From contig LBOM01000001.1 of assembly GCA_000989515.1 (NCBI GenBank), forward strand, positions 61,260 to 125,259: a DNA stretch of 64,000 bases, in the 5' to 3' direction. Below are positions 8,818 to 63,194 of this stretch, piece by piece. The notes below the pieces were generated by a model. That model was not told the origin of the DNA, made no database searches, and was given only the letters and a program-made list of their open reading frames with translations. Position 1 is the stretch's first letter, and each line of letters begins with the position of its first letter. The position numbers and the translations under genes are program-made. Source of the DNA: Candidatus Nomurabacteria bacterium GW2011_GWE1_32_28 (GTDB lineage Bacteria > Patescibacteriota > Minisyncoccia > Phycocordibacterales > UBA9973).

Positions 8818-8843
8818 ACCAAGAGGAAACTCTTGGTATTTTT
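8818..8843 (+). terminator. rho-independent terminator after clpB
   Basis: Hairpin ACCAAGAG-GAAA-CTCTTGGT followed by ATTTTT. Confidence 0.7.
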
Positions 8844-9040
8844 AATATGGTGCGCTGTACTCGAGAATGTTAGAACTGAATTAATGAATTATAGGGGTGA
8901 GTTGTATATCCCCAACCTTTCTATGTGGGCAGAAAGACAAATGTGATTTTACCCCACACCCTTGTATACTATATGTTTGAGGGGCATAGATGTGAGGAAA
9001 GATCAATATCGATGACTCTTTGATAGGTACTTAGTAAAGA

Positions 9041-9931
9041 TTACTTATACCAATCTCCGGATCCAACATATTCTTTAAAGGTTTTTAATACTAGTAAGGT
9101 TACTTTACCTACTTTGCCGTTTCCAATAAAACTATTATCTACTTGTACAACAGGGGCTACTTCTTTACCGCTACTTGCAAGAAAAACTTCATCTGCTTCT
9201 AATAAAAAATCTAAGTTAAAATCTTTCTCAATTACCTCAAAATCGTCCTTGAGATTATTTACAATAACACCTCTTGCTGAACCATAAAAAACATTATTTT
9301 TAGGTGTATAAATTTTACCGTCTTTGATAACAAAAATATTACTATTAGATGTTTCAAACACTTGTTCTTCTGAATAATATAGAGGTTCAAATATACCCTT
9401 TTCTTTATTAAGATGTGCTTGTTTAATTCCTTCTATGTAATTAAAATTCTTTGCTTTAGGCACATCTCTTTTATATTTTATAGTATTTAATATAACACCC
9501 TCACTGTAGATTGTAGGATCTTTTACTTTAAATGTATCCATGAATATAATAATAGTTGGTTCACTTTTTTGATACATAGAATCAGAAACTCCACCAGAAA
9601 TATGAATCCTTATGCTTTTTTCTTTACCATCATTATTTAATTCTAATAATTTATTTACTGCTTGTTCAATTTCTGAAAAAGAAAAATTATGCCTAAGTTC
9701 TATTAATTTAGTAGATTCCATAAGTCTATCTATGTGTTCTTTTAACTTGAAAGCCCTTCCTTTGTAAGTTCTTATGTATTCAAACACACCGTATCCTCTT
9801 GAGTATCCCAAGTCTCTCGGAGAAATAAGTAACTCTTTTTCATCAACAAAGTTGCCATTTAAATATTGTTTATAGTTTTGCATATTATTTATATATAATA
9901 TATTATTACGAAATTTCTTTTCTGCATTCAA
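9041..9931 (-). CDS. class IV aminotransferase (branched-chain / D-amino-acid aminotransferase family)
   Basis: 296 aa, similar by eye to the IlvE/Dat fold-type IV PLP enzymes (GYGVFEYIRTY, EHIDRLMES). Confidence 0.65.
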   Translation of the reverse strand: MNAEKKFRNNILYINNMQNYKQYLNGNFVDEKELLISPRDLGYSRGYGVFEYIRTYKGRAFKLKEHIDRLMESTKLIELRHNFSFSEIEQAVNKLLELNNDGKEKSIRIHISGGVSDSMYQKSEPTIIIFMDTFKVKDPTIYSEGVILNTIKYKRDVPKAKNFNYIEGIKQAHLNKEKGIFEPLYYSEEQVFETSNSNIFVIKDGKIYTPKNNVFYGSARGVIVNNLKDDFEVIEKDFNLDFLLEADEVFLASSGKEVAPVVQVDNSFIGNGKVGKVTLLVLKTFKEYVGSGDWYK

Positions 9932-52263: not shown

Positions 52264-52500
52264 ATGAAAAAATTTGATGAAGATCGTCATTTTGGTGGAG
52301 ATAGTTTTTCTTCTTCTTTAAGCAAAGAAGAAAAAGAAGATTTACTTCTTTCATTGAAGAAAAAAGAAGAAGAAGCAAATGAAGCAATGTTAGAATTAGA
52401 AGAAGTTAAAAAGGTATCTAATATGAAAAAGGATTTTGGTAATCTTGTTTCTAGTTCCTTTTTTGATTTAGACGCTGATGCTCAACTTCCAAGATATTAA
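52264..52500 (+). CDS. small acidic hypothetical protein
   Basis: 78 aa with a strong SD (AAAAGGAG) 8 nt upstream and a Glu/Lys-rich helix. Confidence 0.45.
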   Translation: MKKFDEDRHFGGDSFSSSLSKEEKEDLLLSLKKKEEEANEAMLELEEVKKVSNMKKDFGNLVSSSFFDLDADAQLPRY

Positions 52501-52564: not shown

Positions 52565-52601
52565 AAGCAGCAGTAGGGTATTCCTACTTGCTGCTTTTTT
52601 T
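52565..52601 (+). terminator. rho-independent terminator
   Basis: AAGCAGCAGTAGG-GTATTC-CTACTTGCTGCTT followed by TTTTTTT. Confidence 0.7.
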
Positions 52602-52639
52602 ATGTTTGTTTGTTAAAGGATCTGTGATATTATATTAAA

Positions 52640-52825
52640 ATAGCCTTTGAACCAGCCAACACTGGGGAGGTGAGAGAAGAAAACCATTTGGTTATTAGAA
52701 CTCTCCGTTTGCCGCGTTAAGGTTTTAATTAAGTTAAAAGTAGGGTGGTACCGCGACACAAAAATCGCCCCTGCAAATTTATCAATTAAGATAAGTTTGG
52801 AGAGGCGATTTTTGCTTTTCTAATA
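52640..52825 (+). promoter_or_regulatory. T-box riboswitch leader controlling aspS
   Basis: Canonical T-box sequence AGTAGGGTGGTACCGCGA at 52740-52757. A terminator follows: AAAATCGCC...GGCGATTTT then TGCTTTTC. An upstream Stem I-like helix carries a GAGAGA motif. Confidence 0.75.
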
Positions 52826-52836
52826 CTAAAGTAAAT

Positions 52837-54255
52837 ATGAAAAACAGAGTATATATAAAAGATTTAAAAGATAGTGTTGGTAAGGAGGTGATTATTGCTG
52901 GGTGGGTAAATATTAGACGTGATCAAGGTAAGATGGTCTTTTTTGATATGCGTGATATGACAGGTCTTATACAGTGTGTGTCGTTACCAAGTCACGCAGA
53001 AGCCACAGAAATAGCAAAAGAAATTCGTCCTGAATGGGTTTTAAAACTTACAGGTATGGTAAATAAGCGTCCAGATAAAAATATAAAATTAGATGTATTA
53101 AATGGTGATGTTGAACTTGAGGTAATAAATATTGAAATTTTAAATAAAGCAGAAACACCAGCTATCGATGTATCAACTGATGGAAATGAAATAGGAGAAG
53201 AGCATAGAATAAAATATAGATATCTTGATTTGCGTCGAGGTCGTATGCAGAAAAATATTCGTAATAGACATAAGGTTGTAAAATTTATTCGTGATTATTT
53301 AGATAAAGAAAATTTTACAGAGATAGAAACTCCAATACTTTCAAAATCAACAGCTGAAGGAGCTCGAGATTTTATTGTACCTTCTAGGCTAGATAAAGGT
53401 AAATTTTATGCACTTCCTCAAGCTCCACAACAATATAAACAGCTTTTAATGGCTGGAGGAATGGAAAAATATTTTCAAATGGCAAAATGTATGCGTGATG
53501 AAGATTTACGAGGAGATCGTCAACCAGAATTTACACAACTTGATATGGAAATGAGTTTTGTTGATCGTGAAGATGTAATGAATTTAAATGAAGCTTTGTT
53601 GATAGAAATTATTCAAAAACTTTATCCAGAAAAAGAAATTCAAGAGATTCCATTTCCAAGAATTACTTACAAAGATGCAATAGAAAAATATGGTAATGAT
53701 AGACCAGACTTTCGAAAAGATAAAGATAATAAGAATTTGTTAGCTTTTTGTTGGGTTATTGATTTTCCTTTCTTTGAGAAAACTAGTGATGATAACAATC
53801 CACAAGCAGAAGGTGAATGGACTTTTACACACAATCCTTTTTCTGCAGCACAGCCACAATTTCATGAAGATTTATTAAATAAAAGAAATATTCCAAATAT
53901 TCTTACGAATCAATATGATATTGTTTTGAATGGTTTTGAGATAGGTGGTGGATCTATAAGGAATCATGAGCCAGAAGCACTTTTGGCTGTTTATCACATT
54001 ATGGGAGTTAAAAAAGAAGAAGTAGAAAAGACTTTATTTTATATGCTTGATGCATTTAGATCAGGCACTCCTCCACATGGTGGTATTGCTTGGGGTTTTG
54101 ATAGATTAATGATGTTGTTAGAAAATGAACCAAATATCAGAGAAGTGATGGCATTTCCTAAAAATGGTGAAGGCAAAGATCTAATGATGAATTCACCTTC
54201 TGAAGTATCAGAAAAACAATTGAAAGAACTAGGTATAAAACTTGGAAATAATTAA
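52837..54255 (+). CDS. aspS: aspartyl-tRNA synthetase (compact form)
   Basis: N-terminal OB fold, class II motif 2 FRDEDLRGDRQPEFTQLDME and motif 3 PPHGGIAWGFDRLMMLL; 472 aa. Confidence 0.85.
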   Translation: MKNRVYIKDLKDSVGKEVIIAGWVNIRRDQGKMVFFDMRDMTGLIQCVSLPSHAEATEIAKEIRPEWVLKLTGMVNKRPDKNIKLDVLNGDVELEVINIEILNKAETPAIDVSTDGNEIGEEHRIKYRYLDLRRGRMQKNIRNRHKVVKFIRDYLDKENFTEIETPILSKSTAEGARDFIVPSRLDKGKFYALPQAPQQYKQLLMAGGMEKYFQMAKCMRDEDLRGDRQPEFTQLDMEMSFVDREDVMNLNEALLIEIIQKLYPEKEIQEIPFPRITYKDAIEKYGNDRPDFRKDKDNKNLLAFCWVIDFPFFEKTSDDNNPQAEGEWTFTHNPFSAAQPQFHEDLLNKRNIPNILTNQYDIVLNGFEIGGGSIRNHEPEALLAVYHIMGVKKEEVEKTLFYMLDAFRSGTPPHGGIAWGFDRLMMLLENEPNIREVMAFPKNGEGKDLMMNSPSEVSEKQLKELGIKLGNN

Positions 54256-54903: not shown

Positions 54904-55302
54904 TTACGAACTCAAAGACAATCCTTTCTTAAGTTTAGAAGAATTGTGATGATGATTTGAATTTAATTTTTTAGAAGTATTTGATATTCTGGATAAAATT
55001 AAACGATATCCACCAGGTGGACCTTTGAGCCATTTTGATATTCTTGCAATAGTCGTAGAAGAAAGACCTGTATCTTCAATAATCGTATTATATTGGACAT
55101 CTTGAGAGAGAAGGGATGCAGCTTCTAGTCTATTAGAAAATTCTTTTATTTCTTTTTCAGTCATAAGATCACGTAGAAATCGTCTAGTTTCATCTGCATT
55201 TTTTAAAGCCAAGATAGCTTTTATTAATTGTATTTTTTCTTTTGTTTCCCAATTGATTTCTTTCATATAATCTACTTTAGTAAAGTAAAGTACTTTAGTC
55301 AA
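54904..55302 (-). CDS. YerC/YecD-family TrpR-like DNA-binding protein
   Basis: FLRDLMTEKEIKEFSNRLEAASLL...TGLSSTTIARISKWLKGPPGGYRLILSRI matches the YerC/YecD pattern. Confidence 0.65.
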   Translation of the reverse strand: MTKVLYFTKVDYMKEINWETKEKIQLIKAILALKNADETRRFLRDLMTEKEIKEFSNRLEAASLLSQDVQYNTIIEDTGLSSTTIARISKWLKGPPGGYRLILSRISNTSKKLNSNHHHNSSKLKKGLSLSS

Positions 55303-63067: not shown

Positions 63068-63174
63068 GTTATATCAAGAGTGGTGGTAGAGAATTGGCTC
63101 AAAGACCCCACAGCAACCCACAAATGGGTGCTAATTCCAACCTGTATTATTAAATTAATACTAGGAAAGATAGG
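63068..63174 (+). promoter_or_regulatory. SAM-I (S-box) riboswitch aptamer upstream of metK
   Basis: TTATATCAAGAGTGGTGGTAGAGAATTGGCTCAAAGACCCCACAGCAACC...GGGTGCTAATTCC...GAAAGATAGG matches the SAM-I consensus in P1, the kink-turn, GCAACC, GGUGCUAAUUCC and GAAAGAU. Confidence 0.85.
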
Positions 63175-63194
63175 TTTGTGTTTAGTCTACGCAG

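Follow-up and report, generated by a model that had tools for sequence, protein, structure and literature searches.

Which transfer RNA (tRNA) does a T-box riboswitch monitor when it stands before an aspartyl-tRNA synthetase (AspRS) gene and its specifier position holds an asparagine codon? The question is raised by a stretch of 64,000 nucleotides (nt) from Candidatus Nomurabacteria bacterium GW2011_GWE1_32_28, hereafter the window, in which a structured leader (52638–52822, +) precedes the AspRS gene aspS. The element is a genuine T-box riboswitch leader with an ultrashort Stem I, and its specifier is AAC. We consider it probable that this leader controls aspS by transcription attenuation and is tuned to tRNA-Asn (anticodon GUU).

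A covarying T-box leader and a terminator before aspS

The leader is located between the terminator that closes the upstream genes and the open reading frame (ORF) at 52837–54255. The Rfam T-box model RF00230 matches positions 52638–52775 (+) with a score of 53.1 bits when E-value thresholds are used (E-values are 6.5e-11 locally and 9.2e-9 over the whole 64-kb window, both strands), and this is the only T-box in the window. A whole-window Rfam scan at the gathering threshold returned nothing at the leader, and the element is visible only with E-value thresholds. In the RF00230 alignment, 74 consecutive model positions are deleted, comprising the whole upper Stem I, and the strands of the basal Stem I helix enclose just four residues, AACA. 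The low score is explained by these deleted Stem I positions.

The original prediction, made from the sequence alone, had described a canonical T-box with a short Stem I and an intrinsic terminator upstream of aspS in a reduced, AT-rich genome, and each of these parts holds. The T-box core AGGGUGGUACCGCG is found at 52742–52755, Stem I is shortened by the deletion of 74 model positions, and the terminator at 52759–52819 is very stable (ΔG is −30.3 kcal/mol, z is −7.9, and 0/200 shuffles are as stable). The downstream ORF matches the AspRS model NF001750 with 606.7 bits (cutoff 443), in two stretches. An identical AspRS protein is encoded in Candidatus Nomurabacteria GW2011_GWE1_32_28, GWF1_31_48 and GWF2_30_133 and in GCA_003511065.1, and AspRS homologues with 72–90% identity all belong to Patescibacteria/Paceibacterota; the host is a reduced, AT-rich genome of the Candidate Phyla Radiation (CPR).

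The features of the leader and its gene are as follows, with the basis of each assignment in parentheses.

52610–52638 (+): possible promoter, TTGTTA, 17 nt, TATTAA (read from the sequence; a start would fall near the 5′ end of the T-box)
52643–52671 (+): ultrashort Stem I (RF00230 alignment, covariation, ileS leaders of equal geometry)
52643–52645 with 52669–52671 (+): C-stem of the kink-turn (K-turn), GCC with GGU (RF00230 alignment and sequence)
52649–52650 with 52667–52668 (+): K-turn with a 3-nt bulge UUU and sheared G52649 A52650 with G52667 A52668 (RF00230 alignment and sequence)
52652–52655 with 52662–52665 (+): 4-bp Stem I helix, CCAG with CUGG (RF00230 alignment, covariation)
52656–52661 (+): 6-nt apical loop of Stem I, CCAACA (RF00230 alignment)
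52658–52660 (+): specifier AAC (Asn), followed by the conserved 3′ purine A52661
52672–52705 (+): Stem II with S-turn (aligned by RF00230 to Stem II GAA/AGUA)
52672–52676 with 52701–52705 (+): lower helix of Stem II, GAGAG with CUCUC
52677–52683 and 52693–52700 (+): purine strands of Stem II, AAGAAAA and UAUUAGAA
52683–52685 with 52690–52692 (+): upper helix of Stem II
52706–52708 with 52714–52716 (+): Stem IIA hairpin, CGU with GCG (RF00230 alignment; 100% paired, two covarying pairs)
52711–52713 with 52721–52723 (+): IIB pseudoknot, GCC with GGU (RF00230 alignment; read by eye)
52724–52739 (+): weak Stem III region of A/U pairs only, closing in an invariant AA (52738–52739) before the antiterminator
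52740–52774 (+): discriminator/antiterminator (folding energy −11.9 kcal/mol; RF00230 posterior probabilities near 1)
52740–52745 with 52769–52774 (+): antiterminator helix A1
52746–52752 (+): T-box bulge UGGUACC, with UGGU at 52746–52749 predicted to pair with the tRNA's NCCA end
52753–52756 with 52765–52768 (+): antiterminator helix A2
52759–52819 (+): intrinsic terminator, a hairpin (52759–52814) and U-tract, its 5′ arm overlapping the 3′ strands of A1 and A2
52837–54255 (+): aspS, bacterial-type AspRS of 472 amino acids (aa) (NF001750; Pfam tRNA_anti-codon and tRNA-synt_2)

The element combines the conserved T-box sequence, with its UGGN bulge flanked by helices A1 and A2, with a terminator that overlaps the 3′ strand of the antiterminator and is mutually exclusive with it, and with a basal K-turn in Stem I and a specifier triplet followed by a purine. 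It lacks the distal Stem I platform of other T-boxes, in which an AG bulge and a distal loop form interdigitated T-loops that stack on the tRNA elbow; Stem I instead closes in a 6-nt loop. The purine-rich S-turn strands of Stem II are GAAGAAAA and UAUUAGAA. The terminator lies 18 nt upstream of the aspS start codon. A strict sigma-70 promoter scan found no promoter upstream of the leader.

We evaluated 27 pairs of the proposed structure across an alignment, A2, of 14 unique leaders with Asp or Asn specifiers. Over these pairs, 95.8% of the cells are paired and 14 pairs show compensatory changes on both sides. None of 500 shuffles reached the observed measures, except that 1/500 reached the number of pairs changed on both sides. 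When the 3′ partners were slid by 1 to 3 columns, pairing fell to 33–50% and the covariation score dropped from 0.53 to 0.18 or less, with a peak only at zero offset. The 4-bp helix of Stem I is paired in all 14 leaders (100%) and three of its four pairs covary, while A1 and A2 are 93–95% paired and include a compensatory G-C/A-U pair. The Stem II helices covary as well, and a G-U to A-U change in one homologous leader (L185) supports the IIB pseudoknot; the Stem III helix has no covariation support in A2. Several single-stranded elements are invariant, including the GA/GAG of the K-turn, the xAC-A of the loop, two As of the 5′ S-turn strand (A43 and A44), the UAGAAC core, the AA before the antiterminator and the T-box itself. 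A terminator hairpin and U-tract are present in 12 of the 14 leaders.

A covariance model, R1, was built from these 14 homologous leaders. It scores the window leader, which is one of them, at 138 bits, the highest of any sequence for a model built partly from it, and all conserved elements are intact there. R1 also recovers a leader that was absent from its training set, L007, an aspS leader with GAC at the specifier and a 92-nt insertion in Stem II.

The specifier is AAC in the apical loop of Stem I

In canonical T-boxes, the helix strand entering the K-turn is immediately preceded, on its 5′ side, by the specifier triplet and a conserved 3′ purine. Read in this register, the specifier here is AAC at 52658–52660, followed by A52661. 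The RF00230 alignment places AAC, and not GAC or GAU, at the specifier, and the leaders of other aminoacyl-tRNA synthetase genes agree with this placement.

Calibration began from two kinds of homologue. A scan of reference genomes with an AspRS alignment gave relatives of at most 67% identity among the matches listed, and an aspS T-box was found in 3 of about 37 CPR loci among those matches. One of them, the aspS locus L026, is aligned by RF00230 in the identical register, and its residual residues are GACA. The second kind came from a DNA pattern assembled from the shared features, in which the six loop bases were left free except for the 3′ A. As a control, the pattern was run over 1.4 Mb of fetched loci, where it matched only the window's own copies and L026, and over shuffles of the window, where it matched nothing. 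Run over a metagenome collection, it returned at least 120 stretches, and counts of ileS leaders given here are among the matches listed. Nearly all of the listed matches have a perfect 4-bp Stem I helix.

With duplicates removed, at least 91 unique leaders carry AUC at the specifier column, and wherever the downstream ORF could be read it encodes an isoleucyl-tRNA synthetase (IleRS) of about 1050 aa. These AUC ileS leaders are mostly GC-rich and without a terminator. GAC occupies the same column before AspRS genes at L026, L088, L089/L145, L114, L117/L179, L134, L139, L158, L178, L185 and L205; with L007, the GAC aspS leaders total 12, of which 11 are in A2. AAC precedes AspRS genes in the window, L175 and L118 among the matches listed. 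Finally, R1 found a T-box with a short Stem I at L198, whose loop AACAG holds AAC and then A, and the gene that follows is an asparaginyl-tRNA synthetase (AsnRS) gene, its product 44% identical to a verified CPR AsnRS. The specifier column therefore holds an Ile codon before ileS, an Asp or Asn codon before aspS and an Asn codon before asnS.

Proposed sensing of tRNA-Asn at an aspS gene

The window's leader sequence is identical in three independent assemblies. Its nearest homologue is the GAC leader of L185 (88–89% identity, 18 differences), and the differences include the first codon base and the base before the codon. Each of the three AAC leaders is nearest to a GAC leader (the window at 89% to L185, L175 at 76% to L185 and L118 at 67% to L117). 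The AAC leaders resemble GAC leaders more than one another, which implies that G changed to A independently three times or more. The base 5′ of the codon (52657 in the window, column 20 of A2) is U in 11/11 GAC leaders; the three AAC leaders have C, A and C, and among ileS leaders the base varies freely. This base would face tRNA position 37, and a concerted change there would be expected from a change of tRNA partner. Moreover, the AAC leader of L118 precedes an archaeal-type aspartate-tRNA(Asn) ligase (NF003483, 525 bits). These comparisons support a T-box that would read tRNA-Asn rather than tRNA-Asp. The earlier proposal that this AspRS leader senses tRNA-Asn is retained on account of the AAC at the calibrated specifier, and it withstands the refutation that it named, a GAC or GAU placed there by the covariance model. 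Its structural argument is lost, the loop that it cited being the S-turn of Stem II.

In the proposed mechanism, the nascent leader would fold into the K-turn and 4-bp hairpin, presenting AAC and then A in the loop, together with Stem II and the IIA/B pseudoknot. An uncharged tRNA-Asn(GUU) would pair with AAC in the Stem I loop and, by analogy with known structures, the K-turn and pseudoknot may set the S-turn purines of Stem II against the minor groove of the 3-bp duplex as a clamp; Stem I offers the tRNA elbow no distal platform. The free NCCA end would then pair with UGGU at 52746–52749 and lock the antiterminator, so that RNA polymerase passes 52759–52819, aspS is transcribed and more AspRS is made. 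When tRNA-Asn is aminoacylated, the antiterminator would fail, the −30 kcal/mol terminator would form and transcription would stop. Asp-tRNA-Asn would also count as charged, and the switch would monitor the first step in making Asn-tRNA-Asn, the one that depends on AspRS.

Sensing of tRNA-Asn at aspS makes sense if the AspRS is non-discriminating and feeds Asp-tRNA-Asn to the amidotransferase GatCAB, either as the only route or as a regulated one. The neighbourhood of aspS bears on this. The typical order in relatives is aspS, asnS, a nitroreductase gene (−) and a peptidase M17 gene. The traced members of the clade's 472-aa AsnRS are all encoded beside or near aspS: asnS follows immediately in L185, L207, L210 and L212–L218, and about 2 kb downstream in L211. 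In L185 and L207, whose AspRS are 84–87% identical to the window's, asnS overlaps the aspS stop codon; in L185, a bacterial-type AspRS (84% identical) is followed by an AsnRS matching NF003037 with 653 bits. The window has the order aspS, nitroreductase (−), a trpR-like gene and peptidase M17, and its aspS stop codon overlaps the convergent gene. Compared with its relatives, it lacks asnS in the usual slot.

By tblastn, no AsnRS and no GatB are encoded in the 64-kb window, and no gat genes lie within 10 kb of aspS. The AsnRS of the clade form about 25 clusters at 82% identity or more; AspRS and GatB each form more than 120 clusters at comparable identity (for GatB, 80% or more). GatB is found in relatives with 82–85% identity, and at L085 and L209 it lies 9–10 kb from aspS. 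It is plausible, on this circumstantial evidence, that the AspRS is non-discriminating and that transamidation supplies Asn-tRNA-Asn, as had been suggested at the outset; the part of that suggestion which stands is the absence of asnS from the window and from its syntenic slot and the clade-wide presence of GatB, and GatB could not be tied to this genome. Overall, the analysis demonstrates the RNA elements and their covariation, the place and identity of the specifier, the terminator and the gene; that tRNA-Asn is bound in vivo, that the AspRS does not discriminate and that AsnRS is absent from the genome are inferences.

Candidates for these genes were also rejected. The AsnRS matches P0128, P0143, P0258 and P0272 belong to other populations, with AspRS of 446–448 aa, and the GatB match P0353 has a similar source profile but shares no accessions with the window's AspRS.

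The alternative that survives best accepts that tRNA-Asn is sensed and places an AsnRS gene elsewhere in the genome; AspRS would then be raised for a back-up route to Asn-tRNA-Asn during asparagine starvation, as is reported for Clostridium acetobutylicum. AsnRS does exist in close relatives, and Saad is said to have described in 2012 an Asn T-box on the transamidation operon of an organism that has AsnRS. It is opposed by the loss of asnS from an otherwise constant position beside aspS, and none of the traced AsnRS proteins comes from the window's assembly or its samples. We regard this alternative as unlikely, with an appreciable chance of being right.

A second alternative retains tRNA-Asp as the ligand, with AAC tolerated as a near-cognate specifier whose first base would form an A-C mismatch, or has both tRNAs sensed. 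It has in its favour that the gene is aspS, that the nearest homologous leaders read GAC and that relaxed or dual specificity is known for some T-boxes, such as a lysK leader with AAA that responds to tRNA-Asn, and glyS (PMC4574755). Against it, GAC is otherwise strictly kept in aspS leaders (11/11 in A2, and L007), and AAC arose three times, always with a change of the base before the codon and in one case, L118, before an enzyme typed as an aspartate-tRNA(Asn) ligase. Furthermore, ultrashort T-boxes make no contact with the tRNA elbow and rely on the codon-anticodon duplex and the S-turn clamp; there, single changes weaken binding more than 1000-fold (PMC7583486). This alternative is therefore improbable.

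Slightly less credible still is a decaying or constitutively terminating relic, without tRNA-dependent regulation, in which the G-to-A change was the first step of loss. In its favor, no aspS T-box is present at L084–L086 and L207–L209, where the AspRS are 77–87% identical to the window's. Opposing this, every conserved element is intact in the leader, to the point that it scores highest with the model built partly from it; its sequence is the same in all three assemblies; and the G-to-A change recurs independently in L175 and L118. A strong terminator before what is apparently the only aspS would be deleterious without antitermination, and selection should act strongly against a non-functional specifier when an essential gene lies behind a −30 kcal/mol terminator.

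Hardest of all to credit is the placement given in the original prediction, by which the hairpin 52672–52705 is Stem I and the specifier, AAC or GAA, lies in its internal loop AUUAGAACU (52694–52702): AUUAGAACU does contain AAC, and its GAAC resembles two-codon specifier loops that Saad reportedly described in Clostridium in 2013, but RF00230 assigns this hairpin to Stem II, with AUUAGAACU as the 3′ S-turn strand (AGUA in the model), and the preceding K-turn hairpin to Stem I, which puts the real specifier 36 nt upstream. The UAGAAC core of this strand is invariant in 14/14 Asp/Asn leaders and is also found in at least 91 ileS leaders with an AUC specifier; being constant across Ile, Asp and Asn leaders, it cannot encode specificity.

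Several observations weigh against an active leader tuned to tRNA-Asn, which we nonetheless favor. The RF00230 score of 53.1 bits is below the gathering score of 93. The bulge base is uninformative (U in the window, C in the two other leaders with AAC, and C or U where the codon is GAC), and a loop of 6 nt leaves little room for a 3-bp codon-anticodon helix. The absence of the T-box from the close relatives L084–L086 and L207–L209 indicates that the element is dispensable in the clade. Several GAC leaders also have no adjacent asnS, and the link between codon and asnS is suggestive, not strict. ARAGORN, run over all fetched DNA, found no tRNA-Asn of this organism or of a close relative, and one irrelevant tRNA-Asp. 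Lastly, the absence of asnS was seen at the level of the window and its syntenic slot, and the presence of GatB in relatives and across the clade.

Comparison with known T-boxes, and neighboring loci

T-boxes with an ultrashort Stem I are known from actinobacterial ileS genes (Sherwood et al. 2015; M. tuberculosis and N. farcinica structures; PMC7583486), where the specifier is "mounted in an apical loop" (PMC7583486) and where structures have established the roles of the apical-loop specifier, K-turn, S-turn and pseudoknot (PMC7583486). This class has been described as acting on translation, with all of its members regulating ileS through tRNA-Ile (a 2023 preprint, 10.1101/2023.02.28.530422; PMC7583486, section 6.2). 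According to the 2020 review, transcriptional T-boxes generally require a long Stem I with an elbow-binding platform (PMC7583486).

The window's leader shares with the ultrashort class the K-turn, the 4-bp helix, the 6-nt loop of the form NN-codon-A and the lack of a distal double T-loop platform, as well as the Stem II S-turn strands UAGAAC/GAAGAAA, the IIA/B pseudoknot and the UGGN bulge. Indeed, the pattern derived from the window retrieves at least 91 unique ileS leaders of identical geometry. Numbered from the first base of the C-stem, the codon occupies nt 16–18, the purine nt 19 and the invariant As nt 38–39; the C18, A19, A38 and A39 of N. farcinica ileS agree with these numbers (PMC7583486), an agreement that we take as consistency only, since it depends on where the review's numbering starts. 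Unlike the published class, the gene is aspS rather than ileS, the specifier is AAC (GAC in relatives) rather than a tRNA-Ile codon, the read-out is an intrinsic terminator with a U-tract rather than a sequestrator of the ribosome binding site, and the host is a CPR bacterium.

With canonical transcriptional T-boxes (RF00230; B. subtilis tyrS and glyQS), the leader has in common the T-box sequence, the competition between antiterminator and terminator, the K-turn, Stem II with IIA/B, and the specifier and purine directly 5′ of the helix strand into the K-turn; unlike them, it has no upper Stem I, that is, no specifier internal loop, AG bulge or distal loop. In its logic, it resembles an element from a Firmicute. 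The operon for the non-discriminating AspRS and GatCAB of Clostridium acetobutylicum is reportedly controlled by an Asn-specific T-box, the NT-box, in work by Saad from 2012 and 2013. Both place an asparagine codon in a T-box that governs AspRS, the first enzyme of tRNA-dependent Asn-tRNA-Asn synthesis, which would thereby respond to uncharged tRNA-Asn. However, the C. acetobutylicum element reportedly has a long Stem I and precedes a multigene transamidation operon, one of several redundant routes in an organism that also has AsnRS, whereas the window's leader is ultrashort and its gene is monocistronic, apparently the sole aspS at the locus.

What is new here is the joining of the ultrashort architecture with a terminator read-out, an aspS gene, an Asn specifier and a CPR host; the T-box class itself is known. 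No paper that connects T-boxes to CPR or Patescibacteria came up in the literature searched. It was fair to note that T-boxes are rarely met beyond a few phyla, with the qualification that the ultrashort leader type recurs in CPR bacteria.

The covarying ultrashort leaders with strong terminators (CPR aspS, some ileS, Trp) contradict the current general view, in which transcriptional T-boxes need the long Stem I and its elbow platform for tRNA capture to be fast enough and the ultrashort form is confined to translational ileS leaders. As natural transcriptional tRNA sensors of about 135 nt, they would be useful for kinetic and engineering studies. An Asn codon in an aspS leader, where the nearest homologues have Asp, suggests regulatory logic that follows the indirect pathway to Asn-tRNA-Asn.

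More tentatively, at somewhat less than even chances, we propose that CPR ultrashort T-boxes act co-transcriptionally without touching the tRNA elbow and have branched out to Asp, Asn and Trp, and that aspS leaders have switched from GAC to AAC on three or more occasions, along with the base facing tRNA position 37, tracking reliance on a non-discriminating AspRS and GatCAB. On that condition, the specifier sequence would reveal whether the AspRS discriminates and whether asnS has been lost, and the leader sequence alone may predict both features in uncultured reduced genomes.

Related architectures appear elsewhere in the collected loci. Eight of the 91 listed ultrashort ileS leaders (L123, L130, L146, L167, L170, L180, L087 and L199) appear to have a terminator rather than a sequestrator, and they are of lower GC content than the actinobacterial majority. 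Two further CPR T-boxes, at L025:7676-7865 and L023:529-705, have a 5–6-nt Stem I loop with UGG then G, and a hairpin and U-run after the T-box. Downstream of the first lies a trpE-like gene, whose best NCBIfam match, trpE, scores under the curated cutoff, and downstream of the second the gene of a 744-aa protein like PEP-utilising enzymes (PRK05849-like, below cutoff).

The enzyme itself is unusual in composition. The GAD insertion is normally used for telling bacterial from archaeal AspRS; the window's AspRS is bacterial-type yet has no GAD domain, as is usual in the clade, across more than 120 protein clusters. The NF001750 match is split in two because this insertion, of about 120 aa, is missing. 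By NCBIfam typing, the enzymes of L114, L139 and L205 are archaeal-type, like that of L118. In some close relatives (L139:936-2279(−), L205:5100-6443(−) and L210–L218), the locus carries a chimeric-looking AspRS of 446–448 aa. The N-terminal 120 aa share 54% identity with the bacterial-type enzyme of the window; over the remainder, identity is 41% to an archaeal-type aspartate-tRNA(Asn) ligase and only 25% to the window enzyme. L139 and L205 also carry the same T-box leader at this locus.

Other arrangements occur at related loci. At L185, a DUF6941 gene (8842-9240(−)) lies between the GAC T-box and the AspRS ORF, which has an N-terminal extension of about 60 aa and is followed by asnS; an Asp-specific T-box would there govern both aspS and asnS. 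A relative without the T-box, whose AspRS is 86% identical, has another structured leader, a hairpin and U-tract, just upstream of aspS (L084:9830-10000).

Within the window, a YerC/YecD TrpR-like gene (54904–55302, −) lies near aspS, and a similar gene is found in the unrelated AAC locus L118 (3964-4287(+)). A Lys/Glu-rich ORF of 78 aa with no family match (52264–52500) is located between trpS and the T-box and is followed by a terminator-like hairpin found by scan (52572–52588) and a U-run; at this position, relatives carry a small ORF as well, 68–71 aa long. A SAM-I riboswitch (RF00162, 51.9 bits, above gathering) is present at 63068–63176, at the 5′ end of the S-adenosylmethionine synthetase gene.

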